DNA of 64,000 bases, from positions 6,448,001 through 6,512,000 of the forward strand of contig JAYWIR010000004.1 of assembly GCA_036172245.1 (NCBI GenBank), written 5' to 3'. The notes under the pieces were generated by a model. That model did not search any database, was not told the DNA's origin, and saw only the letters and a list, made by a program, of their open reading frames with translations. Of the stretch, positions 6,201 through 62,150 are shown piece after piece. The stretch is from Raillietiella orientalis (Eukaryota). Numbering within the stretch: the first letter of the stretch is position 1; each line of letters starts with the position of its first letter. Both the position numbers and the translations under genes were made by a program.

Positions 6201-7049
6201 TATGCTGGTCCATGTTCTTTGTCTTTATTTTGCCACTTCATTTCCAACTCTTACTCTCGTTTCAGATTTGCCTTTTTAAAAACAGCTGACTGTAGTTCTT
6301 TAGAAACTCAAGAAATGCTCTGAAATGCCTTCTTACTATGAATTTTGCTATCTTCACAACAATAATTTGTCAGCAGAATATGAAGATTAGGAAATCTAAA
6401 GAACGTGGATCCGGGAGCTGTTTGTGCTTGTTGTTGTTGTAGAAACCCTTCCATTCTATTCGTTTTCCAAGTATTGTTTTGTAGAAGCGCATTGACCTGC
6501 CCGTTCGAAGATCGCCATTTTCAAAATAGTCATTCTTCTCCCTAATTGGTACAGTTCTGTATAATGATTCCCGAATTAAGTGATTAAACCAGTCATCTAT
6601 TCAGTTTCCAAAACAATCTGGACTCTGCTTGCTAAATAGCAAGTAGAGAGAGGTCTTCGATTGTCTTTACAAAGAACGATTAATAAAGCATGTTGAAGGT
6701 CTTCTTTCATTTATCTTCATGCTTGCAGATGTATATCAGAGTGCCAGAAATGCACAGACGACATGGAAAAAGTCAGGAAGGATACATACGAACTGAAAAT
6801 GGAAGTTTGAACAGCATTTTATCTATGGGAGTTATTTCCAGAAGAAAAACAAGATACGTTTTTAAAAAAAAAACAAAAACAAAAGTCCGATTCCTCTGAT
6901 AAATTGTGAATTACACGATGAAAAGTAAAGAGGCGATCGGCCAGCCGTGAGAATGAGTAGCACGATCGTTTAGTACTGATAAGAGAATTCTGATGGTAGT
7001 GTGAACCAACAGAAATTCAACCTTCCCTTAGATTTGATAGCGCTTTATT

Positions 7050-7383
7050 GGTTCTTTCTTAACCACGGTTCTGGAGGTTAACCAGAATTTCCCCCGACCT
7101 CTTGGGAAACGTTTTGCGACGGCCCCAAGGATCCCGGTGGGCTGCCCCACAAGCACTTCGTACATGCTGCACTTCCTCCAGCTGCGTCCTTGTTGTCTGC
7201 TGTCTTCATGGGGCAGTGGCAGCCAGGAACGCTTCAAGAATGGGCCAGAACGGAAGGGACGCCATCCACTGGGAGAAGCTCTCCAAGAAGATCGCGACGA
7301 GACGGCCTCAATTTGAGAATATTCGGATGGAACTTGCTGGCATTTTTGAAAAGTTGCAGATGAAGCCAAACAACGGGCTGTGA
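7050..7383 (+). mobile_element. L1/Tx1-like ORF2 C-terminal fragment (copy A)
   Basis: ORF 7102-7383 (SSCVLVVCCLHGAVAA...DAIHW) aligns with the ORF2 C-terminus at 29262-29711 (AALAALCCTRGIVATW...DVIPH). Confidence 0.75.
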
Positions 7384-7564
7384 TACTTCCCGAACCCCTC
7401 CAAGAAATTTCGGGTATTCATTTCTATTTTTTGTTTTGTTTGTCTCCTCTCTTTCTTTGCCGAGGCCGACCTCGCAGGTACCGTCATCCCGGCAGGTTTC
7501 GTGTTCTTTGAACATGGTAGGACCGATAGTCCTACCGCTGCCTCTTGTATTTTTACAAGAAACC
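7381..7564 (+). repeat. Conserved ORF2/ORF3 spacer (copy A)
   Basis: TGATACTTCCC, U-rich tract, stem TGCCG/CGGCA around ACC-TCGCA-GGT, GCAGGTT, perfect 8-bp hairpin GGTAGGAC/GTCCTACC (7516-7536), then AAGAA|ACC. Confidence 0.8.
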
Positions 7565-7932
7565 CCCCGTCTTGACCGGGTGATAAACTAGGATGTCAAA
7601 ATCAAGCGTCCGCTCTGCTACACAAATACTGCTGCTGAAACCTTCAGCTTCTCTGGAGTCCTTGACTCTATGGGACAGCTCTGGGAACTTAACGAGGAAA
7701 GCTAAGATTACTTCCTGAAAGTTTTCAAAAATTGGCATGGGTGGTTGGAATGAAGTTTGCTTTTCAAACGCGAACGGTCTTTTTTTTGTTTGATATTCAT
7801 CTTTCACTCCATTTTTTTTTTCTTTTTCCTTCTTTTGATTCTTGAAAACTCTTTTAGAAAGGGTTCTGGCTTTCCTTGGCACTTGCGTAACTCCAAATAG
7901 GGCAAAACCCGCAGATTTTTCGAGGAGGTTGT

Positions 7933-13363: not shown

Positions 13364-14350
13364 AATCGATTATCCAGGTGTGATGAAGTGGCTGCTAGCT
13401 CATCTCCAAGGTAAATCAAAGATATTTTTTCCGACAGGATTTGCCGGTTTGTCGTTAAAGCAACCAGCATCTTTCGCAAGGAGCTCACGCGTAACTGGCA
13501 AAAATTCACGACTCTACGAACGGGTATTTTGTCAGAATGATCGAAGCTACCGTTCCATTTGATGAGCGAGGCACCTACCGTCGCTCTTTTCCCAATGTTT
13601 GTTTTCCACGGACGCATATTCCCTCTAGGGAAACGTGCTCCTCCTAACACCAACGCTGTCTACGCCAGCCTCTCAACTCACGCAGAACTCCTTGCAGGTT
13701 CCCATGAATTTCTGGGATGCCATCTTGCCGTCGGGCGCAGCCTCTCTGGTCCTTGGCCAAATCGTGTATCCGTGCGTGTTCAGGAGGCAGTGTCGGCACG
13801 AAATGCAACCTCATGGAGTGAGAGACCGGAAGGGTGAGTGCGGTCCAGATGTAGTAGGCACGGGCACCTTCTTTTGTGTTCGTGCGCATCTTCCTCCGTT
13901 CCTTACGGTTGCGAAAACACAAATGCTTCGGCGTGTGTGCCAGGAAAAGGTCAAGAGACACGCGATTCAGTCGGCGAGAAATTTTCTAAAACATCCGCCT
14001 TACTAAGTGATCACAGAGACCATTCGGATAACAGTCACTCTTCCGGAGGAATCAGGCATTTGTCGCGGCGGGCAGCACGCTTTCGGGAGTCAGCAGGGCG
14101 AGGCTGCTAATTCCTTACCTCCTCGCCCATCAGTGGTGTTCTCGGTTTGCTTGCTGCTGAGACCTGAGACCCCTTCCTTCGTCGAAAGACGCAAGGGATA
14201 GTGTAATCCCGGCAAGGTGAAAAGTGACTTGCTGCCTAGCAGCAAAAACAAAAAGGGCTTGGACAACTCGGGAAGTGACGGATGCTGCGATCCCGAGTGT
14301 CCCACCCCACGGACTTGCACTCTGGAGACTACTAACACAAATTCCTCTGG
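13364..14350 (+). pseudogene. ORF3 remnant: leader + BTB-BACK
   Basis: Starts at AATAA|ATC; FVFHGRIFPLG..VLL, NFWDAILPSGAASLVLGQIVY, FLTVAKTQMLRRVCQEKV. Confidence 0.6.
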
Positions 14351-14399
14351 AGGAGGTGAGGTGGTCCCCAGAGTTCTGCAACAGTTAAACCCTCCCACT

Positions 14400-14852
14400 A
14401 AAGTGGCAGGAGTCGGCGTTGCTGGTTCTGCATGGTGGAATCCCATGCAAAGCGCGTCGTCACCACTGGACACGGAGGAGTGTTGACGCTAAGCGACAGT
14501 TGCGGCAGGAAAAAGACCCTCCCATACCTACTGTTGGAATGTGCTACCTTCCGATCCCTTTGGAATTGCTTCGCGACGATCCTAGGAACTCCGGCGGGCG
14601 ACCCCAGGGACATTTTTAAACGCCTCTTCGCGCGTGCTTCTCTACCGCCAGCCGCGTCCCTAGCAGTTCTCTGTTGCGTCTGCGGAATCTTGGCAACCTG
14701 GAACGCGAAGAGGCCAGAATGTCAAAGACTCCATCCACTGGGCGCGAATCTTCCTGAGGACTGCCTCGAAATGGCCTCACTTGGGCATTATTTAAACGGA
14801 ACTTGCCAGCATCCTGAACAGGATGCAAAGGACGTCTAACAGCATACCGTGA
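14400..14852 (+). mobile_element. L1/Tx1-like ORF2 C-terminal fragment with decayed CCHC finger (copy B)
   Basis: SCGRKKTLPYLLLECATFRSLWNCF...PAASLAVLCCVCGILATW; homologous to 29262-29711. Confidence 0.8.
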
Positions 14853-15029
14853 TCCCTTCCTCGATTCCCTCCTTCCCCGTGTATAATTCCTCTCCCCCGT
14901 TTTGTTTGTTTATTTTTTGCTTGTGTTTTCCCTTCCCCCACGCTGCCGAAGCGGACCTCGCTGGTTCTGCGTACCACTCTTCGACAGGTTCATTACAACA
15001 TATATTTTTATTACTTTAAGTAATAAATG
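14850..15029 (+). repeat. Conserved ORF2/ORF3 spacer (copy B), ending at AATAA|ATG
   Basis: TGATCCCTTCC, U-rich tract, stem CTGCCGAAG/CTTCGACAG with inner ACC-TCGCT-GGT, CAGGTTCA, AATAAATG at 15022-15029. Confidence 0.8.
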
Positions 15030-15549
15030 CCCCAGCATAACCGGAGGATAATCATCGAAAGACGGGATTGCAAAAAAATTGCGCTTCTCCTCGCAAAATG
15101 AAGAGTGGATGGCACTGCAGAAGGGTAAAGGGTTTTCGCGTTTCGTCTTTTTCTGAGACCTACTTGTACGGAGATGACCAGCGATGCTTCATATATATCA
15201 AGCCATCAAGGCGCTCCACGCACATCAACTGCTGCACCCCTGCTTTTGTCGTATCATGGAATTTTTTACATCTATTAATATTCCAAGCTTTTATGGTATT
15301 CATAAATCAAGGCATATCCTCAATTCTCTTTCAGATATTATTATGGATGCTTTGTTTAGTGTCGAATATAATAAAAGTACATGTGTAATTAACTAATAGT
15401 GAAGGAATTAAAGCATTTTATAACTTCGTGATTCTTTTTAATTGAATTAAATCGAATATTTACATAACTTGAACTATAGAAATAAAATAATAAGAAATTA
15501 TTAAAAAAAAAAAAATGATGCTCCTATTAGTACACATGCCTAATAAAGT

Positions 15550-17149: not shown

Positions 17150-18508
17150 CACGAACACTGGTACGCAGATTAGCGTGGGCAAGTTGTATTGCAACGCGGA
17201 AACTTGTCTGCAATAGATGGGCTTCGAAGCCCACAACGGTTTACTTTGCGTTTCGATTGCATCTTACATTGGAGAAGAATCTCTTGCAGTTTTTCTTTGC
17301 CTTCATGTAACCCGCTCTCGATCTCAGTCTCATACTGAAGAACTTTGCCCTCTACAAGGATACTCCGGGTAGTGCTAAAGAGTAAAAAGATGGGCTGGTG
17401 TAATAACATTCATGACTTCCTGGTGACACCTACCACAACTTGTTCAGGAGTTCCTTAACGGGTAAGGGTAGTTTATTATTTTGGACAAAGGTATCATCAT
17501 GCTACGGTGATGCTGAGAACCGCTTGACGATGTTCCTCGACCTTCAAGAAGGGAGGCCAAATACTCGGCATGAACGAAGGCTTAATTTTTATCATTTCGA
17601 GTCTCAAGAAAGGCATTCAATTGAGAGCACTAAGAACAATTGAAGACAGGAAAGACGTTCAAGACGTTGAGAAGTTCATTCAATTCATGATTTTTTGTCT
17701 TCATACTTTTTATCATTTCCTCGAACTGCCCGACCACGTCGTTGTGGGAGAAGGAATAATCTGAAACGGGTGTTACAAGAATGGAGGAGGGGTATTCCTT
17801 GTTGAAGTGAGGACTTGATCTGGAGAGTTCTCCTCCCATGCCTCGAACCTCCGACCTTCGGCTTCTAGCTCAGGGTTTTCGACGCTGGGTCAAGCCTACT
17901 TGCTTAAGTCTCGGCTCTGCGAGGACCTCAAGATCGAAACATCTGTATACTCGAGCTTCTGCCTGGGCTCGACTGTGTAGGTTTATGCTCGGTCGTTTGG
18001 AAGATGTTCTAGCGGATTGGTTCTGTGGATGTCGGCTGCGTTGGATGTTGGGCGGTAGCATCGGCTTGCCAAGCTGGTTAGCGGAATTGCGTTGCTTTTC
18101 TGCCTCTTTCATCAGTCATCAAACTGCTTAGACTACCGTAGCTCTCGTGGACTTCTTGGCCCCTTCCAGCCTCGTCCCGTAGTTGTTTTGTGCGAGTCCA
18201 GCTTGCACGGAGAACTGCAAGCGAGCTTCCATCCTTGAGCTGCATCCGCTTCACTCCTGCATCCAGTCAAAGCTTTCCCGCATTTTTAAACACCAGTACG
18301 GAGAAGAATGTGGCGAAAAGTTGCTGGCGAAAAGTCTGCATCCGGTTGCACGCAGCGTTAGCAAACGAGAGCATCGGACAGCAGGAAGGAAGGGTTGCCG
18401 ATAGATGTTCTGAGTTTCGCATATTGGATACTCCCTTAAGCGGAACGGAGGCTTGGAGAAGCTGCCAGCTTCCGAAAACTGGATCGTCACCCGGGTGCTC
18501 CGGGACGT
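17150..18508 (-). pseudogene. ORF3 remnant: leader + BTB-BACK directly downstream of LINE copy C
   Basis: Frame opens at AATAA|ACG (18508) and reads SRSTRV...LREYP...CLKMRESFDWMQE; then LMKEAEKQ (BTB) and GQFEEMIKSMKTKNHELNELLNVLNV (BACK). Confidence 0.65.
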
Positions 18509-18713
18509 TTATTTGGTATAAAAATAAACATTTACAAAGACTGTAGTTGGATCGGTGGTCCAACCACAGGCATTTCAAAGGAGCCTTCCGTGTTACCAGT
18601 GCGCAGACCGGTGAGGTTGGCCACGACAGCAGGGGGGAAGGGACAAACAAAACGAAAAAGAAACAAGAATAAAAAATAAATAAATAAACTTGGTAGGGTG
18701 CGGGAAGGAATCA
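18506..18713 (-). repeat. Conserved ORF2/ORF3 spacer (copy C)
   Basis: Minus strand: TGATTCCTTCCCGCA, U-rich tract, ACC-TCACC-GGT, 11-bp hairpin CTGTGGTTGGA/TCCAACTACAG with a G-U pair (18541-18569), AATAAACG. Confidence 0.8.
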
Positions 18714-19340
18714 CGTCCTGCTGAGGGTGGTCCTCTGCATCCTTTCGAGGATGCCGGCAAGCTCTTGCTGGATGTTGTTTTTCAGGTGGGGTCATCTTGT
18801 TACCATCCTTATGAGTCTGACGGCAAAGTGGATGGCATCTTTTTCTCTCGGCCCTCCTCTTGCGTCGCTCCAGACCACTGCAATCCCGTGTAGATAGCAG
18901 AGAGCTGCAAGCGAGGCTACCGGTTCAAGAATTGGAGGGTCGTAAATAAAGGTTCCCGTCCTCCGACTGCAAGCTGGCACTGGAGACCAAACAGCTCCCC
19001 GAATCCGGTCCTCACGGTGGCAGGAGCGCTCCTGTGGCAGTGTAGAATTCCGAGGCACCTTATCTATGCACTGTCGTTCTAACATGACAAGTGACCGCCA
19101 ACAGCCTGACGTGATCACCTGTTCCGATATTCTGAGACTTCTGCAAAACGCTAGCATGTGCTGAAACTGCTCCTGGAACCGATTGCTTCCCTTCCTCACC
19201 GCTTCTAACAGCTTCTTGGAGCGTCTCGAAAGTTGGGGCTCAAGAAAACGAGAGTGACGCTTGCCATCTGGACTGCCACAGTAATGCAGCAGTCATCACA
19301 TCACTACTCCAGAAACACGGGATGCGATGGAAAATCCTAT
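18711..19340 (-). mobile_element. L1/Tx1-like ORF2 C-terminal fragment (copy C)
   Basis: ORF 18792-19199 contains EPVASLAALCYLHGIAVVW...KDAIHFAVRLIR. Confidence 0.8.
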
Positions 19341-19374: not shown

Positions 19375-19990
19375 CAAGACCGCCCTATGCACCATGGGTG
19401 CTCCACGTGGCCGGAATGCTACCTTCAGTCCTCACCAGCCTTGAACGGCGCTCTCTGTGGGCGCTTGGAGTATCCATGGAAATGGCTCCTCGAGAGACTC
19501 GAGAATTCTGCGGCCAGGAGGAAGGCCTCTATTGTATGGGACCCAGTTGGCGTTCTCTCCCCTTTGACACACCCTAGCGTGCCTTTTGGAGTCTACGAAT
19601 GGGGACCGGATAGCCAAGGAGTGACTTGAGCGGATATTTGAAAGCATTCAGGCAGCAATGCCTAAGACCTATCTCTCGAAGATCTTGAACAACCCAGGAA
19701 TGCACATGCAGGATGGACTGCACAAGATGGGGAACCAGAATTCCGTGAGCCTTCATGGCTGCTCGTAAGCGTGCTCCCTAGGCAACCTAGGAAAGAACGG
19801 GCTTGGTTTCTTCTCCTGAATGACGCGAACTCAGGCATTGCCAACCCTATCGTGACACTAAACATGGAGGCGGAGGCTTTTGGTTTCGTGGCAACAAGAG
19901 GCCCTCTGGAGGTAGCTTGCCTTCCTCTCGCTTGCAACGATGAGGGAGAAAAAGACTCCATCGCTCCGCCTCCACCCTCTATGCTCTCAA
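19375..19990 (+). pseudogene. ORF3 remnant: leader + BTB N-half
   Basis: Leader CGRLEYPWKWLLERLENSAARRKASIVWDP, then AQDGEPEFREPSWLLVS...IVTLNMEAEAFGFV. Confidence 0.5.
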
Positions 19991-20450
19991 ACTGACTCTC
20001 CCTCTCGTGCCTTGAGAGTGCCACACTCGACCCAGCCGTTCCCTACGGAGAATGAGGTGATAGTTATGAACTGCACAAACCTAAAGAGTTCACTTTCCAC
20101 CAAGAAGGAAAGACGATCAGCATCTCTGGAAGCCACCCCTTGCAGAAAACGCTTTTGCTGCTCGAGAATGAGAAATGGATGCAGCGATTCATTGTATGCT
20201 GCGCAGCATCCTCGTGTGCCGTTCCCATGGGTGGAGAGGGAACACGAGGATGTGAGAAAGGGAAGGGAATGTCCAATGGATCCACACAGTCGAGGTTTTC
20301 CTCCTATCCGCAGAATTCTCGAGGCGGCTGGGAGCCATGTCCATGGATACTCCACACGTCCACAGTGAGCGCCGACCAAGGCTGGTGGAGACGGTGTCTT
20401 TGTACAGGTTCCTCAGCGACTCTTTGCGGCAGAACTAGCTTCCATGGTGC
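19990..20450 (-). pseudogene. ORF3 remnant: leader + BTB start (inverted paralog of 19375-19990)
   Basis: CGRVEYPWTWL...LENSADRRKTSTVW, then DADRLSFLVESELFRF; nucleotide similarity to 19430-19600. Confidence 0.55.
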
Positions 20451-20539
20451 ATCAATTAAGGCTCCTCGTCCGGGAGACAGATCAAAATATCCTTCAGGTC
20501 AGCTAGGGTCCATCTCCTACCCAAGAAGGGAGACCGGAG

Positions 20540-21300
20540 GTGCCTGAGCAACTGGCATTCCATCACGATCGTGAACAAGGAAGCGGATATTTGGTGCTCT
20601 CCAGGGTGTGAATTCTGCCAATAGAGCTGGAGGAATCCATAATTAACCTGGAGAGGACCTACACGGTCCCAGTTCAAAGCATGGATGACAATCTGCTCCA
20701 CGAACACACCTGGTTCGAGCTGCAGGAAGGAGAAACCATGGCCGCTATGAGGAAAAAAAAAAATTGGGGAGCTGCTACACACAGGTTTTCACCCGAGAGA
20801 GGAGCTTTGGTCGCCGCAGCGGATCTTTAAAGGGCTTTCGACTGCGTCGATCAGGAGTTGCTTCTGAAGTTGCCAGCAAGCTTCCTCAGCTGCTTACGCT
20901 TGCTAAGGCGCCAGGCGAAGGTTTCGATCTCTTCATGCCCACAGAGGGCTTCAAGGTCGCTCGAAGAGTCAGATAGGAAGAAGGTTTCTTTGATGCCGAT
21001 ACTCATCATCCCGCTCTTCGAACTGAGGCTGAGAGCGTGCCGGCGCACTCCAGCCCGTCGCCCGTCCAACTCCGATGACACGTCTGGTGCAGCCGACTAT
21101 GCAGGCGACTCTCCCCTATTAACAGAGACAAATCCCAGACGTTCTTCCCTCCATGGGTGTCGCTGGCCTTCAGGCGATCAGGCAAAAGTCGAAAAGCGTG
21201 GCGTTTGGCACAGAGGCGGACGCGCACTGGTCCTCCTTGTAATTCCTGTGGGAGAAATGCTCGATGGTGTCTCCCCTCGCGCGTTCTCCTGAAGAATGTA
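20540..21300 (-). pseudogene. Degenerate BTB-BACK remnant
   Basis: LCGHEEIETFAWRLSKRKQLRKLAGNF (BACK start) and FLQLEPGVFVEQIVIHALNW...FLQLYWQNSH...LFTIV (BACK core). Confidence 0.7.
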
Positions 21301-21699
21301 GGAAACAGAGAAGGATTAGCATTTATCTTCTCACGCAGCCGCAGGCGAGGGCAAGGGGGAGGTCATCCACTTCGCCAGATCGCGTTGCTGACGGAAGAAA
21401 ACGAGTGGATTTCCTGACGTCCACCGAACAGGAATGCCTAGCAGCAGGATTCACGGGGAATGTGACTGCGCGTGGGTAGTCCAACCCTCGTGAACAGCAA
21501 CGCCATCAGTCGTCTGGAAAAAAACCTCCTTGAAGGGATGCGAGACGACATTGGCCCAAGTCCCAGATCCCGGAGCGCGACTATTGAGGACTCATGGAGT
21601 CCACTGCTTCAACGTTGGGTGGATCAGGAGGAATAGGATGCGTCTGCAGCGTGGGAGGTGACCTACCTTCATCTCCCAAAGGCCGTGCGAGGACATCAA

Positions 21700-22400
21700 A
21701 TCCACTGGTCATTGGGAATTCTTTCTCCTAGGCAACGAGGCCACTCCAAAAGTTCCAGCTCAGGGTATCCAAAGATGGCTGAAGTCTCCGGGGATTCCCC
21801 GGAAGGAATTTCCAGATCTCGTGCTTTCTGGTGGATGCCTCCATCCTCCCACTCCCATACCACTCCCAAACCACCGTCTTGCTGTTGCACTGCGCCCTCC
21901 CCCGAAACGAGGGACCGCCACCACTCCTTAGTGGGAAAGCGCCCAAGGGACGCTCCAATGCGGGACAGTGGGGGAAAACTCCCGCACGTGCTTCGGGAAT
22001 GTGGAAGGCTGCATCAGGGGTGAAAGAGCATCGCTGAAGCACTTCGGTTCCACGGTGCCGCCCCAGAAAACCTCTTCAGAGGTATGTTCACTTCTCCGGG
22101 CTTGCTGGTCGTCTCGACGGCAGCGATGCTCCGCCCCATACGAGCAACGGCGGGAACCGCGAAAATGGGAAGAGGGGGAGGAATGAAGCCGATATTCCGG
22201 AGATCCTCTTGCAATCGCCTTCTCCTTCATGTGAAGAGCAGAGAGATGGCCCACTCCGGGATCCGAACTACCAGGGCAGGGAAGCATGGTATTCTTGTTG
22301 GCAGACTGACTCCAAACCCGTGAGACTCCCCCCTCCCTCCATTCCGACCCTTCTCTGACCGATGTAACTCCTCGGGAATCAAAGTCAAATACCTCAAGTC
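21700..22400 (+). pseudogene. ORF3-like remnant: leader + BTB (tandem unit 1)
   Basis: Leader GYPK...RAFWW; FGNVEGCIRGERASLKH and LFRGMFTSPGL (typical BTB F-R-x-M-F-T). Confidence 0.6.
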
Positions 22401-22419
22401 CGATGCACCCCATTCCCTA

Positions 22420-22572
22420 TCTGTCTTTATCTATTGTGCAGATTCCTGTCTCGAGACTTCTCCCCAGTTCTGTCCCTACGAGAGCGGCCCTTTTGGGTTC
22501 GGCCCGATACACATATAGGTCCTTCTCCGTCTGTGACTGTGATTTGATCGATTGATTTATTTTAAATAAATG
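22420..22572 (+). repeat. Type-2 spacer ending at AATAA|ATG
   Basis: CTTCTCCCCAGTTCTGTCCCTACG...GCCC...GATTTATTTTAAATAAATG; similar to 23200-23352 and 26200-26360. Confidence 0.7.
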
Positions 22573-23170
22573 GCCCAGTCATTTGGGATGAGAGGTCCCT
22601 AAGAGAGGCCTGAGGAACGAAGCCTCACCCAGAGGCCTCGCTCGGCTCGCGCAAGGATGCACCGAGTCCTGAGGGATCCTCCGCGGAAGTGTCGAGATCC
22701 TTGCTTACCGGAAGACACCTTTGTGCTCCCTCCTCTTTACCAGCAGGCTGCAACCGGCAAGGTCGCAACCTTGCCGGTGCAATGCAGTCTACCAGGGGAG
22801 AGTGCCCGAGGGGCGCATCCACTGCGGGATAGTGACAACCCTGACTCACGTGCTGCTGGAATGCGGAAGGCTAGTGCCGGGGTGGGGGGCGCTTCCCAGC
22901 CATTGGCCGAAGCGCTCCCCGATGCCTCCCTCCAGGTCTGCTTGAAAAAAAAAAGACTCGCTTCTTCGGGCTGATTGGCTGCTTTCTCTCTGGCGATGCT
23001 CTGCCGCGTTGGGTGGCTGCCCGGAGGGAGCGGCCGTCGTCCCGGGAAACTGCTCACAGCCGCCATCCATCCCTTGAGCTTCCTTGCGTGCGGTGCGACG
23101 AGATGGGTGGCCGCTGCTGGGATGTGAAGTTGAAGGCCTCAGGGCGATCATGGCTAGGCTAGATCGAAAC
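22570..23170 (+). pseudogene. ORF3-like remnant: leader + BTB (tandem unit 2)
   Basis: ATG at 22570 (MAQSFGM); GVGGASQPLAEAL..SLQV ~300 nt later; AAFSLAML; LRAVRRDGWPLLGC. Confidence 0.45.
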
Positions 23171-25999: not shown

Positions 26000-26360
26000 C
26001 GAGAGCAACGGGAGCAGTTCACACTCGCTCTCGCTCGGGTTCCTCCGAGTGGCCCAGTCTGGGATATGAAGTACAAGGGCGTCCTGGGATCAATGTGAAC
26101 AGACGAGCTCGTGTCGCCAAGTAAACGCATCCCCATGCCGTGTCTGTCGCACGCAAACCTTCAGGGACCAACCTCGCCACCAGGAGGATGGCTCGGCCCA
26201 TTTCCTATTCATCTATTTATTCATCGGTCCTCTCTCCTCTGACTTCACTTCTCCCTAGTTTTGTCCCCAGCAAAGTCTAAGCCCTTCCTCTTGGATACGG
26301 ATCGCATCGTAGGGTACGCCTTGTTGTAAACTCCTGTTTCTGATTTATTTGGAATGAACG
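26000..26360 (+). mobile_element. Short ORF2 C-terminal remnant plus type-2 spacer ending at AATGA|ACG
   Basis: aacgcatccccatgccgtg resembles gacgtcatcccgcatgctgtt of copy E; spacer CTTCTCCCTAGTTTTGTCCCCAGC matches 22448-22480. Confidence 0.5.
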
Positions 26361-27300
26361 TCCCGGAAAATTCGTATGAGGAGGTCACTCAGGGGGAGGA
26401 TAAATTTTTTGAAACAAACAGAGCTCCCGAGATCCACAGTGTTCTCGCAGCACCGCGGATCTCTCCCGCTCCCCCGCCTAGGGAAGACAGCAGCTCCGCG
26501 CTCCAGGACAGGAAGGTCACCTCCAGGAAACATGGCGTGGATTCACGAGAAGTCACATCCCGGGAACAGCTTCTCAGGCAGAGGTGCTCGTTTCGCCGTT
26601 CACCCCCAGGAGAGCGCTCTTAATCCTCCTGCGCTCTCTTGCGAGGGGAGGAGAGTTCTCTCCGGAGCTTAGGTCTTCTTCAGAGGTCCCGGTTCTCCTC
26701 ACATTGTTCCTTGGGATTGAGTTATGACGAACAAGGAGGAAGAGGAGTAGGAGTAGGGGGGACAAGGGCTTCCAAACACCGAGATCACTCCGAAAGAGGG
26801 AGTCAGGATCACTCCACGCAGGAGCGCTAGGGGCCTCGCAGCCGTTGATGACTTCGAAAGATCGGCTGCGGTTCAGTCTCATTCGCTTGCTCTCCTGCTT
26901 GGTCCATCCGGTCTTCTAGGAGGTCATGCGGCGGCTCGCCTCCTCCGCAACACCTTCTAGCTTGAGGGCTTGCGCTTTGCGCTGTCCGGTCCCAGTGCTC
27001 TCCTTGCGGTCGAGGAATCAAGGAACTGAGAGGAGTGGTCCCAAACTGTCTAAAGAGATCCCGGAGAGCAACCTTGCGGTGGACAAGTTCGAGACCTCTC
27101 AGATCCCCTGCCATCCTCGCTCGGCTGGTCGGGTCATCGAAGACCTTCCCTGGTCTTCGATGAGACTTCCATGTCCCGGTCGCAGCTTCCAGAATGACGG
27201 ACGGGTTCTCCAGGGCGCTGGAGATCTACCCAAACAAGGACAACCTCCGGCGTGCCCAGATCTTGCCTGCCGCTCCCACCCCATCCGTTCCCTCCTTCCA
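26358..27300 (+). pseudogene. ORF3 remnant: leader + BTB-BACK
   Basis: Frame from ACG 26358 (SRKIRM...) stays open to LSCEGRRV; GGEFSPELRSSSEVPVLLTLFLG; LIRLLSCL; KLSKEIPESNLAVDKFE. Confidence 0.5.
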
Positions 27301-27899: not shown

Positions 27900-29711
27900 G
27901 GATGCTACGCCATAGGACAATGCCCTTGAATCCTACTGCTCCCGCAACCTACCACGAGTCCCTGACCCTCCCTCACTTCACCATCCCTCTTCCAGTTACG
28001 CATACACCGAGGAGCTTGGACCCCTCCTCTCTACCTTCGTCGTACTTCTTCCGGGAGAGAGGAGCATTCCCGTAGCCGAAGCGTCTTCTTGCCGACCCCA
28101 CACGGGGATCTCCCCCTTGCTGGGCCGCACGCTCTCACTGTCACGTCTCTTTCAGCAGTGGAAAAGTGTACGGCATGCCGGTTCGACGGGGCATACGGCA
28201 GGGCGACAGCCCGAGTCCCCTGCTCTTTAGCACCTACTTTGAGTTGGTGCTGAGAGCATACAGGGTGACATTGGCTGCCTTGCCGAGCTTGTGCCCCGGC
28301 ATGCCTGCTGTAGCAGCATACGCCGACGATCTTCTGCTCTTGCTGCCCATGTCCGCCCCGGCAGCGGCAGTCGAGGATTTCTTCGATCTGCTAGGCCGCG
28401 GGAAGGAACTGTGGGTGAACAAGGCGAAGTCGTCGGTGGTACCGGTGGGTGCTACGTGGGCTGGACGGCCTGACTGGATTCGCTTGGGGATCCCCACGAC
28501 CAGGTACTTGAAGTACCTGGGCGTCCCGTTGGGGGACTTCTGCCCGTCAGAAGCCTGGTCAGGTTGTCTCCAGAAGGTAGAGTTGGCGATCGGCCCGTTC
28601 CTGAGAGGCAAGTTCCTCCTGCCGGAACGGGCCGTGGTGTGGAACGCGTTCGCGGCTCCCATCCTCTGCCCCCTGCTTTTTGTTTGCCCCGTACCCCCCT
28701 CTCCCCAGTTGAAAAAGAGAAGAACCTATTTCGTATCGCCCTGTGGGGCAGCGGGAGGCCCCGTGTGCCTTTGAAGGCTCCACGTCGAGACTGCGGTCTC
28801 GGTCCCCTGACGCTGGAACGCTTGGAAATCCAGCTGCAATGGCGCACCATGGCCATCGCAGCGAAGTTGTGGAGCACCCCTTGGTGCGTTCCGGACCGCC
28901 TCCTAGCCAGCCGTGTATCCAGGATGCAAGGACTTGCGTCTCATTTTCTGTGCCCCGGCCGGAAGATCAGAAGATGCGGCCTTCTCCTTGGACACATGGC
29001 CACACTGGTCAAGGAGAACGGCTGGATGGTATGCCGCCCCGCCAACTCCTCTGCATGGCTGGAGGAATCTGTTGGAACGTGGGCGAAGATGAATGCCCCG
29101 AGATGTAATAGCTGGAACTGCCTGCGATTCGGCCCCTACGCCCGCTGCACCCTGCGGACCATGCTGGAGGGTCCCGCCAGGAGTACGTGGGAGGAGACCA
29201 CCCCTCTAGCTACGGCTCTGCCCTTCCTAAGGAGGGCCCTCGTTAGCGTCCGGACGCCGAAGTGGCAAGTCTTCTGTCGGATCGCAGGCAGGGAGAAGAA
29301 GGGAGGGGGAGGCCCAGGGACGAGGGGAGAGTAAACCCTGAGTGTGCCAGGTGTGGGGAGCGGGAGTCCCTCCCTCACCTGATAGCTGACTGCCCTGCCC
29401 TCCGGTCCCTTTGGGAACGTTTCTGGACGACCCTTGAGATACCGGTTAGCGGCAAGCCCAGAGACGATTATCGCCTCCTCTTCGTGCGGGACGCCCTGCA
29501 GCCAGCCGCAGCCCTGGCAGCACTTTGCTGCACCCGTGGGATTGTGGCGACCTGGAGCGAAGCCGAAGATGAAGACGCCAACGAGAGGGACGTCATCCCG
29601 CATGCTGTTCGATTCCTGCAGAGAGCTACCGGATGGTCCCAGTTGAGTGGAATGAAGAAGGACCTCGAGGGCATCCTGCAAAGCATGGACCCCCCTCTTA
29701 GTGGTCAGTGA
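27900..29711 (+). mobile_element. L1/Tx1-like non-LTR retrotransposon ORF2 (RT core, thumb, CCHC finger), frameshifted and 5'-truncated (copy E)
   Basis: RRGIRQGDSPSPLLF (~28184-28228), YADD (28319-28330), VNKAKS, KYLGV (28511-28525), ERAVVWN, and C-x2-C-x7-H-x4-C CARCGERESLPHLIADC (29343-29393) over ORFs 28166-28774, 28564-29334 and 29262-29711. Confidence 0.92.
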
Positions 29712-29911
29712 TTCCTTCCCAGCCCTCCAAACTCTTTTTTTTTATTTGTTTGTTTTATTTTTCTGTTTGTTTTTTCCCCATCTCCTTCCACTGCCGAGGA
29801 GAGTCACGCTGGTCTGCATCCCGGCATCCCAGCAGGTCCTTCTAAATGTTAGTCGTTAGTGGGGCCTTGTATCACGTGTTGTAATGACAACATGAAGAAT
29901 TTGAATAAACG
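29709..29911 (+). repeat. Conserved ORF2/ORF3 spacer (copy E)
   Basis: TGATTCCTTCCC, U-rich tract, CTGCCG..ACGCTGGT..CGGCA, GCAGGTC, stem TGTT(A)GTCGTTA/TAATGACAACA, AATAAACG at 29904-29911. Confidence 0.8.
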
Positions 29912-30740
29912 TCCCAGAGTATCCAGGTGGCAACGTCCAAGAAGATGGCCGCAAGCAGGGCGCCAGCGTCCCGCGCTCCAGGAACTGTGGTCGCAGGTAG
30001 GGAGCCCACGCCAACTGCATAGAGTTTCAGAGGATCGTCCATACTTCTCAGGATGGCGTCGGGAAGGAAAGCGCCGTCGCCGACGCCTCCTCGTGGTCCA
30101 CACCCTCCTGAAACTAAGAGCTTGGAAACCGGGACGAAACCCAGAGCGCGGTCTCTTCCCAGGTGCTGCCAGAGGGGCGCCAACTCCCCGGTCTGGGCTG
30201 CTGAGGACAGCCAGAGCGCCGGAGGACTGCTTGTCGACGCCTCTGTTTCCGAGTAGACTCCAGCGGAGGTCCTGGGGAGACAAGGAGCACCCGGAGGAGC
30301 CACTCCCGGAAGCCAGAAGGTTCCTTGTCAGTTCGAGAGAAGACCCCGCACCGCTGCCCCCGCCTTCTTGCAAGAAGGCTCCGGGAGCACCGGATTCTGG
30401 TGTTTGGGATGCGGTTTTACCCCTCCCCTTTTGAGGGAGGGCGCAGCTCCGCCCGGGCACCCGTCGAGAGCTGCGGCTTCGGCCGCTCCGGAATTCGACG
30501 GGAGGGGACGGAGAGTGAACCTCCCGCGGGCGCTGGCGGGGACGAGCGGAGAGCAGCGCCGAAGACGACCCAGCGGGCATCCGCGCGTTTCCTCCACGCT
30601 CCTCCTCTCTGTCTGTGTGACAGCGCTTTGTGCCTGCAAGCCAGGATCCCGATGCTATCAACCTGGATCCTATCTCTCCTACAATTAATTTTAGGGCCAT
30701 CAAGACAGCAGGTCATGAACGCCTCTGTCTCCCGGGTCAT
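29909..30740 (+). pseudogene. ORF3 remnant: leader + BTB downstream of the RT-bearing copy E
   Basis: (ACG)SQSIQV...; RAPEDCLSTPLFPSRLQRRSWGDKEHPEEPLPEA; ALCLQARIPMLSTWILSLLQLILGPS. Confidence 0.55.
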
Positions 30741-48432: not shown

Positions 48433-49839
48433 ATGGGAAGCTGCAAGTCGCATCCTTTTCCTTCGTCCGTCACTGCCTGCCGGACTCATAGGCACTCCAG
48501 GGCGTCCGACCTGCTGGCCGCGTGCGTGTTGTGTGCTTTCGTGTTTGGTGTGACCATCGGCCTGCTCATCCCTTTTCACGTCATATCCTCCCCGGTCTCC
48601 GCCCCTTTGAACCGCTCGTGTGGCGTGGCCATCGTTGCGGACTACCCCTCCGAAGTAAGGCGGGATCCGGAAGACATGATCTCTCCCAGCTCCCTTTTCC
48701 CGCCTGCTCGTCTCGGAGCGAACTTGCAGGTAGAGGTGGAAAGTACCTCGCGTTTCCCAGCGGAAAGCCGCCTTCCTCCGGGAACGGTCCAAGAGAACAG
48801 GACGTGGGCGCAACTCACCGAACCGTCCTGGAAGCGCCTTCTCTTTCCCTCCCCTCCCAAGAGAGGACTGGCACCTTCCGGCAGGATCGTCACAGGAGTG
48901 TACTGGAGCGACGAGATGGAGAGAGAACTTCCCGAGGGATTCGGTTCCCGGGAGGACGAAGAGTGGAGGAAGGTGTGTCGCCAGTCGGTGGTGGTGAAGA
49001 TGGAAGAGAGCTGCGGTAGGAAGCACAACCGCATGCTGACCTTCGAGAGTGGCCTTCGATCTTGCTGCCGCTACCGGCAGAACCAGGATCAGATCCAAGG
49101 AGAAATCCTGAGTTTCCATCTGGGGCGCATCCTGGGGATAAGGAACGTGATCCCGTCGACGCTGTCTGTGGTCGACTCCAGGTCCTGGCGGTGGAACTCT
49201 GTGAGGTCCCACCTGAACCTGGCCCAGTGGGAGGAAGGGCGCCCCATAGTGCTGAGCAAGTTCCTGGACAGACTCTCTCCCGCCCACATCCCCGAACCCT
49301 TCCGTTCCCCGAGTAGGCGCCTCCACCCCACTGACATACCGCTGCTCAACCTGACGATGGAGCGTGACCGAGACAGGCTGGTCGAGCTCGTGCAGTGGTC
49401 CGACCTTATCGTCTTTGACTACCTCACCGCCAATCTGGATCGGGTGGTGAACAACATGTACAACCTCCAGTGGAACCCCACCATGATGGAGGCGCCCGCC
49501 CATAACCTCGGCAAGCTGGGAGACACGGGGCTGCTGGTATTCTTCGACAACGAGAGCGGTCTGCTTCATGGGTACAGGCTCCTGGGCAAGTACGAGCCCT
49601 ACCACCGGGCCTTGTTGGACTCTCTGTGCATCTTCCGGAAGAAGACGGCTGACGCAGTTAAGAAGCTTCACGCGAGCGGCATCATCGGCGACCTGATGGA
49701 GAAAGCCTCTGCCCACGGAGAAGGAGCAACCCTTCAGGGCTTCGCCCGCCTTCCTCACAAGAACGTGAAGATTCTGAATTCTCGCCTGGAAACTATTTAC
49801 AAGAGGATTAAGTACTGCGAGTCCTTGTACTCTTCGTGA
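48433..49839 (+). CDS. fj: Four-jointed, Golgi/extracellular Ser/Thr kinase (FJX1 family), 468 aa, single coding exon
   Basis: N-terminal type II TM (LLAACVLCAFVFGVTIGLLIPF); CGRKHNRMLTF; QIQGEILSFHLGRILGI; QWSDLIVFDYLTANLDRVVNN; catalytic FFDNESGLLHGYRLL; intact ORF. Confidence 0.97.
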   Translation: MGSCKSHPFPSSVTACRTHRHSRASDLLAACVLCAFVFGVTIGLLIPFHVISSPVSAPLNRSCGVAIVADYPSEVRRDPEDMISPSSLFPPARLGANLQVEVESTSRFPAESRLPPGTVQENRTWAQLTEPSWKRLLFPSPPKRGLAPSGRIVTGVYWSDEMERELPEGFGSREDEEWRKVCRQSVVVKMEESCGRKHNRMLTFESGLRSCCRYRQNQDQIQGEILSFHLGRILGIRNVIPSTLSVVDSRSWRWNSVRSHLNLAQWEEGRPIVLSKFLDRLSPAHIPEPFRSPSRRLHPTDIPLLNLTMERDRDRLVELVQWSDLIVFDYLTANLDRVVNNMYNLQWNPTMMEAPAHNLGKLGDTGLLVFFDNESGLLHGYRLLGKYEPYHRALLDSLCIFRKKTADAVKKLHASGIIGDLMEKASAHGEGATLQGFARLPHKNVKILNSRLETIYKRIKYCESLYSS

Positions 49840-60490: not shown

Positions 60491-60599
60491 AGGAACCTGG
60501 GATTTCGAAAATGACGGCTCTTGGAAAAAGAGCTGATAATTCCGAAAACGCTGGAAGAGCTGCTGCAGATTCCTCCAGAGGAGGTAAAGCAGCTCTCAA

Positions 60600-61080
60600 C
60601 GTGCTGGAACAGTGCAACCCTCCCCTTAACATGACAGGAGTCGGCGATCCTGCTGGTACGTTCCCGAGTCTCCCGTGCAACGGCCGCCGACACCATTGGA
60701 CCCGGAGGAGCGCAAGCCCGAACTGCAGCAGTTGAGGAGAAAGAGAATTCCTCCTACACAGGCTCATGGATTGCGTTGCTCTCCTTCCCCTTTTCCACGT
60801 TCCTGTGGATCCCCGAGTGCAACCTCAGAAATGTTTCGAAGCACCTCTTCTCGCGCGGCACCCTTAAGCCGACTACATCCCTAGCGGCATTTTGCTGCCT
60901 ACGTGGCGGAACCGTGGCTGCATGGATCAACTCCAGAGGAGGTCAGGACGATAGAGACGCCATCTATTTTGCGGTCCTCTTTTCGAGAGCAGCGTCAAGA
61001 TGACTTTATTTGGGAATCTTGAAACAAGAACTTGTTGGCATCCTTACAAGGATGCAGACGACGCCCTCCAGCAACTAGCA
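60600..61080 (+). mobile_element. L1/Tx1-like ORF2 C-terminal fragment (copy G)
   Basis: LPCNGRRHHWTRRSASPNCSS*G..., KPTTSLAAFCCLRGGTVAAW...RDAIYFAVLF. Confidence 0.8.
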
Positions 61081-61278
61081 ATCCCTTCCCGAATCCCCCC
61101 CCCCCATCTTTTTTTGTATATATTTTCTGTTTATTTTTCTTTTTGTTTATCCCCCTCCCCTCTGCTTCGAGACGAACCTCTCCGGCCTGCGCGCCGGTTC
61201 TCGGCAGGTTCCATGTGTAACGTGGCAGGACTAAGCGTCCTACCACTGACTTGTATGCTTATTTTATATAAATAAACC
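61078..61278 (+). repeat. Conserved ORF2/ORF3 spacer (copy G)
   Basis: ATCCCTTCCCG, U-rich tract, stem CTGC..CGAGA/TCTCGGCAG, GCAGGTTC, hairpin GTGGCAGGAC/GTCCTACCAC (61222-61246), AATAA|ACC. Confidence 0.8.
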
Positions 61279-62150
61279 CCCGGTGCAACCGGGTGTCCAT
61301 CCATGTCACCCCACACTGGTTGGATCTTAATAAACCTCCATGTGCGCTTCGCGGTGAGGATTCAAATGCCCGGGGATCTCGGAATCACAGAGAGCTCATG
61401 CGCGTGCTTAAGGCACACCGGTGTACGGCGCGCACCGAGAGGGCCGTCGTGTGACGAGCACTCCGAAATGAAAGGCAGGAGCGAAGGATTCGTAGAAAAG
61501 TTTTTGTGAAGGAAGAATAGATGTGATATGGAGATGATTGACGCACCTCCGATGAACTGATCGAGCTGCTTTCAACAGCTACAGAGCCCGAGTCCTGGTT
61601 GGCAGGCGATCATTCCTTGCGGCTGCTGGGTCGCAGCGCCGGTTCCGAGACGCGCTCAGCACGCGGCTCGGCCGCTGCGGAGCCGCCCGTCCAGGCATCT
61701 GGCTTCCAGGGTGTCCCCAAGAGGGCGGACGGCCGAACCGAAAGTTCTCGAATTCGTGAGAGTCAGTGCCGCGTGGCTTCCCACTGCCCGACGTCGGAGG
61801 ACGGGCCCGATAGTAGGCAGCAGGCAGGGGGGAGGGGAGCGCAACCTTACGCGCTGACGCGCCAGCAATGATCGCCACCAGCGCCAGATCCCGTTCCCCC
61901 TGCCTTGGAAATCCTCTTGAAGTTCTTGTAGCCTTGCGGGAAGATTTCCGAGACTGCACCTCCATTGGGAAACCGGGGGTCGAGGCGGGAGCTTCAGAGT
62001 CCGCCCGCCTTCAGCTAGGAAATCCAGGCATCCAGGAAAGAATCCCGAAACTCAAAGAAATCTCCGAAAGGAAGGGATCGTCGTCGTCCATCCACAGGGG
62101 TAGAGATGATTCCGGAGCTCAAAGAACACGTGGTCTCGAGTGATGCAAGG
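61276..62150 (+). pseudogene. ORF3 remnant: leader + BTB-BACK downstream of copy G
   Basis: Frame from 61276 reads to ...FVEKFL*RKNRCDMEM; VLVGRRSFLAAAGSQRRFRDALS...IWLPG; CLGNPLEVLVAL. Confidence 0.6.

Follow-up and report, generated by a model that had tools for sequence, protein, structure and literature searches.

Structured 3′ Untranslated Regions of Decayed L1-Like LINE Copies in a Raillietiella orientalis Contig

We analyzed a 64,000-nt stretch of Raillietiella orientalis DNA (GenBank assembly GCA_036172245.1, contig JAYWIR010000004.1, positions 6,448,001 to 6,512,000 of the forward strand), hereafter the window, to which all copy counts, flank tests, and searches for free-standing tails apply. 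Our subject is the 3′ untranslated region (UTR) shared by seven decayed copies of a long interspersed nuclear element (LINE). An initial annotation had listed five stretches with the same order of parts and a similar length as structured intercistronic spacers; these belong to copies A to E, and two copies, F and G, are added here. Six of the seven copies are located as follows, and the parts of copy E are mapped further below.

7094 to 7593, plus strand: copy A, with the end of the second open reading frame (ORF2), its TGA stop codon at 7381–7383, and the 3′ UTR, in which the terminal hairpin lies at 7566–7580
14192 to 15054, plus strand: copy B, with the end of ORF2, TGA at 14850–14852, and a 3′ UTR without stem 2
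18477 to 18985, minus strand: copy C, with the end of ORF2, TGA at 18713–18711, and a 3′ UTR with all four stems
20369 to 22600, plus strand: copy F, with a reverse transcriptase (RT) remnant at 20369–21453 and a diverged 3′ UTR from ~22311 to 22600
26197 to 26392, plus strand: copy G, a ~200-nt 3′ fragment akin to copy F, with its hexamer mutated to AATGAA (26353–26358)
28076 to 29936, plus strand: copy D, in which an RT domain remnant is spread over three frames; its TGA lies at 29709–29711 and is followed by the 3′ UTR

The five stretches first listed are true homologues. A MAFFT alignment of A to E with 50-nt margins has 66% mean column identity, and an nhmmer profile built from the five-copy alignment recovers all five at E values of 9e-60 to 1.2e-83, with nothing further convincing in the window. 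A covariance model (R1), built on the stem-to-end part of the five copies and searched over the 64 kb with filters off, scores A to E at 98–138 bits. The landmarks of the initial annotation (a CCTTCC-like motif, a C/T-rich tract, ACCTC..GG, CAGG, and an AU-rich stretch) are all present. Its span limits, by contrast, were cut arbitrarily, from the ORF2 stop to an AATAAA hexamer, while the homology extends ~300–500 nt further upstream and ~30 nt further downstream. The shared parts of the copies are 60–65% identical between lineages.

The annotated spans begin at ORF2 stop codons, which are TGA in A to D and TAG, one codon earlier, in E. Translation of the DNA upstream gives the decayed C-terminus of one protein family, with stops or frame changes in all copies and a Cys-x2-Cys...His...Cys motif ~100 residues ahead of the stop codon. 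In copy D, positions 28076–28771 match Pfam RVT_1 above the curated cut-off (E 2.8e-7), and the last 154 codons give a weak zf-RVT match below the cut-off (E 0.018). A word-indexed protein search with the copy D RT piece matched one protein, P0001 (619 aa, 63% identity); the same search with the C-terminal piece found nothing among longer proteins. Compared with solved structures, P0001 matched human L1 ORF2p best (E 7e-40 to 5e-39), followed by R2 proteins at 7e-17 and weaker, L1 and R2 being the only LINE types among the ten sequences matched. Exhaustive searching with HMMER returned 40,601 proteins at E ≤0.001, 328 of them at ≤1e-30; among the 150 matches listed, none exceeded 38% identity except a 132-aa fragment at 70%. 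We scanned eight top matches for domains and found Exo_endo_phos plus RVT_1 in seven and zf-RVT in six; six of the eight are 1242–1299 aa long with Exo_endo_phos plus RVT_1, and five of those six also carry zf-RVT. By predicted domains, the scanned relatives thus show an L1-like ORF2 layout (endonuclease, RT, and zf-RVT), of which the window copies retain only the RT and the weak zf-RVT match. The provisional assignment of the ORF2 relatives to L1 follows from structure match and domain layout.

The family is sparse in public protein data, with one full relative above 50% identity among ~5.8 billion and 1.8 billion sequences. A metagenome profile search with an alignment of P0001 and copy D gave four loci, all distant RTs at 22–27% identity, and viral contigs yielded no further copies. 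A motif from the ORF2 end had at least 120 matching stretches in genome contigs; the 80 loci examined were all prokaryotic chance matches, and the R1 model found nothing in these 80 plus the four metagenome loci (84 in total). A genome-contig search with a UTR motif returned no matches.

The two added copies represent a more distant branch. The RT remnant of copy F was found by tblastn with P0001 (E 7e-24), and R1 gives a weak match (9.8 bits) at 22470–22596, where the UTR of this element is expected. The parts of copy F follow the order seen in A to E: a C-rich tract, a stem 1-like domain, an AU hairpin with AATAAA (22565–22570), and a terminal hairpin (22574–22587). Copy G matches copy F by blastn (61% over 208 nt) and R1 at 8 bits. 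The F remnant at 20369–21453 (plus strand) is only 34–36% identical to P0001, placing F and G in a diverged lineage, so that at least two deep lineages of the LINE family lie within 10 kb. An inverted repeat of 156 nt (19428–19583 with 20239–20392, 77% identity) stands between copies C and F; since its second arm falls at the 5′ edge of the F ORF2 remnant, the first arm may represent another piece of a LINE in inverted orientation.

Target-primed reverse transcription starts at the 3′ end of an element, and its signature is a shared 3′ end with variable 5′ extent. That pattern is present here. All seven copies keep the 3′ end, their 5′ truncation points differ, and their lengths run from ~0.2 kb (G) through 0.5 kb (A, C) and 0.7–0.9 kb (B, E) to 1.9 kb (D) and 2.2 kb (F). 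The seven are dead, 5′-truncated, independently inserted copies from several diverged lineages.

At the downstream side, the annotated spans end on the AATAAA hexamer, and the homology continues through a further hairpin to ~30 nt past it. The hexamer is intact in five of seven copies (B, C, D, E, F) and one base off in the other two, copy A having AAGAAA at 7557–7562. Shared sequence stops ~8–12 nt after this GC-rich terminal hairpin, right past which mean pairwise identity falls from 0.61 to the flank baseline of 0.26–0.36. Local alignment of the 160-nt flanks after the hairpin scored no better than shuffles (21 pairs, z −0.79 to 2.34), and tblastx of the 900-nt flanks gave short non-collinear matches only, the best (E 0.005) on opposite strands. 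We rejected two candidates for homology further downstream, a CGCTYC-like motif aligned by MAFFT ~60 nt past the hairpin and a ~60-nt BLAST extension of the C–E match past the hairpin, as neither reached significance in local-alignment scores against shuffles.

Given an RT-encoding ORF2 upstream and unrelated flanks downstream, the conserved stretch is a 3′ UTR with no downstream cistron, and we are highly confident that it is the 3′ UTR of decayed L1-like LINE copies without a conserved downstream ORF. The initial annotation had instead favored an intercistronic element allowing expression of a downstream ORF. Such an element might act as a signal for re-initiation or resemble an internal ribosome entry site (IRES). 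The stretch does adjoin a stop codon, an ATG lies within ~20 nt of the terminal hairpin in A (+12), D (+17), and E (+9), and proposed IRES activity is discussed for L1 ORF1–ORF2 intergenic regions (PMC5381506). Yet ORF2, which lies upstream here, is the final gene of a LINE, and an AATAAA signal precedes the supposed start. Beyond the hairpin, no flank DNA, translation, or ORF is conserved: first ATGs occur at +2 to +155 and open ORFs of 4–96 aa that are unrelated among the copies. Nor do the copies share a start, as the span ends on an ATG in copy B only, where it overlaps AATAAATG. We regard translation of a downstream ORF as an extremely improbable role.

None of the seven copies carries a poly(A) tail, although short tails may have decayed, and no repeat tail is evident after the terminal hairpin. 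On either side of copy B, at 14182–14191 and 15055–15064, stands the same 10-nt sequence in direct orientation without a mismatch, a candidate target-site duplication. Chance 10-mer matches are expected at ~0.015 for copy B and ~0.1 over the seven copies tested; a candidate was found in one of the seven, and the 5′ ends of the others are imprecise. Similarity of copy B to the other copies is detectable from 14338 onward only, and the sequence upstream of 14338 has no translated similarity to copy D ORF2, so that the 5′ end given for copy B follows from the candidate duplication alone. If the repeat is a target-site duplication, the element would end 8 nt past the hairpin without an A-tail.

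The boundaries also bear on whether the conserved 3′ part belongs to the element at all, rather than being either a conserved target at which a Tx1-like LINE inserts site-specifically, or an independent short repeat or short interspersed nuclear element (SINE) that the LINE happens to adjoin. A protein-atlas search did list a Tx1-named cluster (score 0.88), a weak lead only, and Tx1-group LINEs insert at specific sites (PMC3747384). Homology nevertheless runs unbroken from the end of ORF2 through the UTR and stops within ~12 nt of the terminal hairpin, and the sequences beyond are unrelated, which argues against site-specific insertion. Every copy that the covariance model finds in the window comes with an ORF2 remnant, the truncated copy G being the one exception, and no Rfam family matches any copy, even at E ≤5. 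A target or separate repeat is thus a highly improbable source of the conserved part.

The layout of the UTR is, from 5′ to 3′: a poly-C/poly-T tract of 70–90 nt, a branched stem 1, a variable stem 2, an AU hairpin, and the terminal GC hairpin. Copy E, which contains the stretch shown above, is mapped as follows.

60566 to 61075, plus strand: ORF2 C-terminal remnant, decayed, with in-frame stops and frame changes
61076 to 61078, plus strand: ORF2 stop codon TAG, one codon ahead of the aligned TGA of A to D
61083 to 61152, plus strand: pyrimidine tract, with CCCTTCCC at 61083–61090, poly-C at 61095–61105, and a T-rich part at 61106–61152
61168 to 61209, plus strand: stem 1 domain, from the RNAalifold consensus, per-copy folds, and pair counts
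61222 to 61246, plus strand: stem 2 hairpin, 4+5 bp with one C–A mismatch
61251 to 61277, plus strand: AU hairpin, the 3′ arm of which reaches the AATAAA hexamer (61271–61276)
61279 to 61306, plus strand: terminal hairpin (61279–61293) and the last ~12 nt of homology, the 3′ end of the element

The ORF2 remnant of copy E is matched by tblastn with the copy D C-terminal piece at 60712–61057 and by blastn to copy B from 60566. Within stem 1, the outer helix pairs 61168–61172 with 61199–61203 and the inner hairpin pairs 61182–61186 with 61193–61197; the conserved motifs ACCTC and CAGGT occupy 61176–61180 and 61205–61209. Hairpins homologous to stem 2 of copy E lie at 7516–7536 in A and at 18541–18569 (minus strand) in C.

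Sequence conservation across the UTR equals that of the coding end. Mean pairwise identity is 0.63–0.64 in the T-rich tract, 0.53–0.58 in the stem 1 domain, and 0.61 over AATAAA and the terminal hairpin, giving a range of 0.53–0.64 compared with 0.45–0.65 for the last 250 nt of ORF2; the stem 2 region is lower, at 0.28–0.30, close to the flanks at 0.26–0.32. Among unpaired letters, conservation is highest in the ACCTC..GG and CAGG motifs.

Folding of the five-copy alignment with RNAalifold predicts four elements, namely the outer stem 1 (9 pairs), its inner hairpin (6), stem 2 (8), and the terminal hairpin (5). Across these, 83.3% of 132 cells are paired, compared with 33–46% when partners are slid by 1–3 columns. 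The compensatory changes claimed in the initial annotation are present but few: both sides have changed in 6 of 28 pairs, compared with 2.4 on average after shuffling, where 4 of 500 runs give 6 or more, and with 0–3 in slid controls. The count over all seven copies used a plain MAFFT alignment that misregisters the inner hairpin of F; here 74.1% of cells are paired (34–46% slid), 10 of 28 pairs have changed on both sides (shuffled mean 4.8; 0 of 500 reach 10), and the covariation score is 0.206 (0.073–0.158 slid). Because kinship can beat shuffles and the structure was taken from the same sequences, we rate the covariation as suggestive only.

The individual stems differ in how well they hold up. 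The case is best for the inner hairpin of stem 1, which keeps 4–6 bp in B, C, D, E, and F with differing sequences and has three positions changed on both sides. Stem 2 had been described as varying in sequence while still pairing; this stands for A, C, and E, where the zone is strong (−13.5 to −17.5 kcal/mol) with one double change, and not for D, where the helix as earlier drawn is a non-homologous long-range pairing that competes with a local hairpin preferred in the minimum free energy (MFE) fold. The reported lack of stem 2 in copy B was confirmed as a deletion. Cells of the terminal hairpin are 74–80% paired. CpG decay as a cause of the changes in this stem (stem 4) in D and F was not relied on, as the window shows no CpG depletion (observed/expected 0.75–1.0 throughout).

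The unpaired motifs ACCU and AGGU (61176–61180 with 61205–61209 in copy E) are mutually complementary in all seven copies. In such a helix 88.6% of cells pair, with no covariation, the observed values being reached by 163–256 of 500 shuffles. Combined with the outer stem 1 helix, it would make a pseudoknot, which we offer as a possibility.

An Rfam search, proposed with the initial annotation, assigned the UTR to no family. The window has no match at gathering thresholds, and none of the 11 matches at E ≤5 overlaps a copy. One sub-threshold match elsewhere, at 6868–6957 (minus strand), is to the bacterial small RNA InvR (30.7 bits against a gathering threshold of 60, E 0.029) and is probably due to chance in AT-rich DNA. 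A tRNA scan of the window found none.

Parallels for such a 3′ end exist in several LINE groups. Poly-C/poly-T tracts and AATAAA also occur in the 3′ UTRs of lizard and frog L1s, and the description of non-mammalian vertebrate L1s (lizard, frog, zebrafish; Boissinot and Sookdeo 2016, PMC5381506) matches our copies in this combination and in having many diverged lineages within one genome; the ORF2 relatives, for their part, have the L1-like arrangement of endonuclease, RT, and zf-RVT. The same account gives no conserved 3′ UTR hairpins, in contrast to those predicted here. For the zebrafish L2 LINEs ZfL2-1 and ZfL2-2, ORF2 protein is described as binding 3′ stem-loops (Hayashi et al. 2014, PMC4176376). 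The stringent-type tails of these elements and of eel UnaL2 resemble our copies in having a conserved stem-loop near the 3′ end with variable stem sequences, and the role proposed here by analogy, in which RNA of the same element is recognized to start target-primed reverse transcription, would be common to both. Unlike the window copies, however, UnaL2 and ZfL2 are L2-clade elements that terminate in short tandem repeats (TGTAA in UnaL2, cited in PMC3747384), whereas the window family has an L1-like ORF2, its tail shows no evident repeat, and several hairpins accompany a pyrimidine tract and AATAAA, with no match to any Rfam family.

Another parallel is a monocot L1 lineage, for which Ohshima 2013 (PMC3747384) describes a conserved 3′-end hairpin with compensatory changes, common to maize and sorghum SINEs. 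That lineage and our copies both have variable stems beside conserved loop or flank nucleotides, and in both the last tens of nucleotides are unusually conserved; the monocot elements differ in ending in poly(A) and having known SINE partners, whereas our host is an animal, no SINE partner is known, and no poly(A) was seen. A position-specific 3′ UTR stem-loop has also been proposed for RT recognition in human L1 and Alu (Grechishnikova and Poptsova 2016, PMC5135761). That proposal is computational and concerns a relaxed-type, poly(A)-dependent element, and the likeness is by description only.

From these comparisons we infer a mechanism in which the hairpins are functional and bound by RT. 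Through the AAUAAA signal, located ~30 nt from the end, the element RNA would be cut just past the terminal hairpin, which would fix its 3′ terminus. ORF2 protein would then recognize the structured 3′ domain in cis, picking its own RNA, and target-primed reverse transcription would begin at that end, at the nicked target, as demonstrated for stringent-type LINEs (PMC4176376). Initiation at a defined end would account for the retained 3′ end of every copy and for poly(A) tails not being copied; that all seven copies lack A-tails, and that copy B has a candidate duplication, fits such a start, as opposed to one within poly(A). The initial annotation had named an RT-recognition signal as its second reading. 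The context, a 3′ UTR after the ORF2 stop with 3′ ends kept, fits, while the function itself would be carried over from known LINEs. Hairpin-based recognition by RT is a known kind of signal and is plausible here. For the statement as a whole, that these are LINE 3′ UTRs whose structured domain serves 3′-end template recognition by ORF2 protein, we estimate a probability of about one in two.

A number of observations weigh against this proposal. The covariation was assessed on only 5–7 decayed copies, the pairing figure is inflated by deriving the structure from the same sequences, and the seven-copy slid controls already give 4–8 double-changed pairs against the 10 observed. Stem 2 is clear in three of seven copies; copy B has lost it by deletion, F and G have none, and in D it is degraded, as is stem 4 of that copy. 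The terminal hairpin shows breaks and never a double change. Whole-domain fold energy clearly beats mononucleotide shuffles only for A (z −3.2) and C (−2.9), with z of B, D, E, F, and G between −1.24 and +1.91, and the antisense strands fold about equally well. The initial annotation had read G-U pairs as favoring the sense-strand RNA; the pairs do not pick a strand, as there are 14 G-U against 11 A-C cells among the 132 and pairing is 83.3% on the sense strand compared with 81.1% on the antisense. With this near parity, it is ORF2 and AATAAA that define the sense strand, not the pairs. The L1s described in vertebrates end in poly(A) (PMC5381506), which the copies here do not, and for this reason the clade assignment (L1, Tx1-like, or other) stays provisional. 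Finally, the window contains no SINE with the same tail.

Much of this would be expected if the copies were LINE 3′ UTRs whose hairpins have no function and reflect common descent plus chance compensatory pairs among few relatives. Related sequences can exceed all shuffles without any structure, strand preference is lacking, five of the seven copies fold no better than shuffles, and stem 2 is dispensable in B, F, and G. Such a reading does not sit well with 74–83% of cells being paired against 33–46% in all slid controls, with an inner hairpin of stem 1 that persists in five copies despite differing sequences, or with conservation of the UTR that equals that of the ORF end, given lineages only 60–65% identical overall. 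We judge functionless hairpins to be unlikely, though deserving serious consideration.

The region around the hexamer suggests another role for the hairpins, in 3′-end formation or RNA handling of the LINE transcript in place of RT recognition. They could mask or present AAUAAA, fix the cleavage site past the terminal hairpin, or affect RNA stability or export. AAUAAA falls in the 3′ arm of the AU hairpin, which appears in the MFE fold of five of seven copies (A, B, C, E, F), and the hexamer is well kept, as noted above. The terminal hairpin stands between the hexamer and the end of homology ~30 nt on, and ~30 nt is the usual distance from a poly(A) signal to the cleavage site. The AU hairpins are nonetheless weak (−1.0 to −7.1 kcal/mol), with none in D and a 6-bp pairing in G drawn by eye only, and could arise from AT-rich sequence beside a fixed hexamer. 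A handling role would also leave the conserved stem 1 domain, 100 nt upstream, unexplained, and does not agree with the lack of poly(A) tails in the copies. We consider it an unlikely function, in whichever of these forms.

Template recognition by ORF2 protein, if it applies, has consequences beyond the window. The family pairs an L1-like ORF2 with a structured, apparently tail-less 3′ end. Should this hold genome-wide, it would bear on stringent versus relaxed template choice by L1-clade enzymes and on the mobilization of SINEs or mRNAs. It is possible, though doubtful, that the copies represent an animal L1-clade LINE family with stringent recognition of a multi-hairpin 3′ UTR, a defined start, and no copied poly(A). 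If so, this animal family would parallel the stringent L1 lineage of plants and would support sequence-specific 3′ recognition as ancestral in the L1 clade, relaxed later in mammals. Annotators should mask these stretches as LINE 3′ ends and not treat them as gene spacers or host-gene regulatory RNAs.

Elsewhere in the window, a 468-aa single-exon ORF at 48433–49836 (plus strand) resembles four-jointed box protein 1 and the FAM20 family. Its first protein-atlas match (0.97) is a mostly chordate cluster, and the Pfam matches to Fam20C and FAM198 are weak and below the cut-offs; the ORF points to an animal host. GC content is ~39% in the first 6 kb of the window, rises to as much as 68% at 40–44 kb, and then falls.

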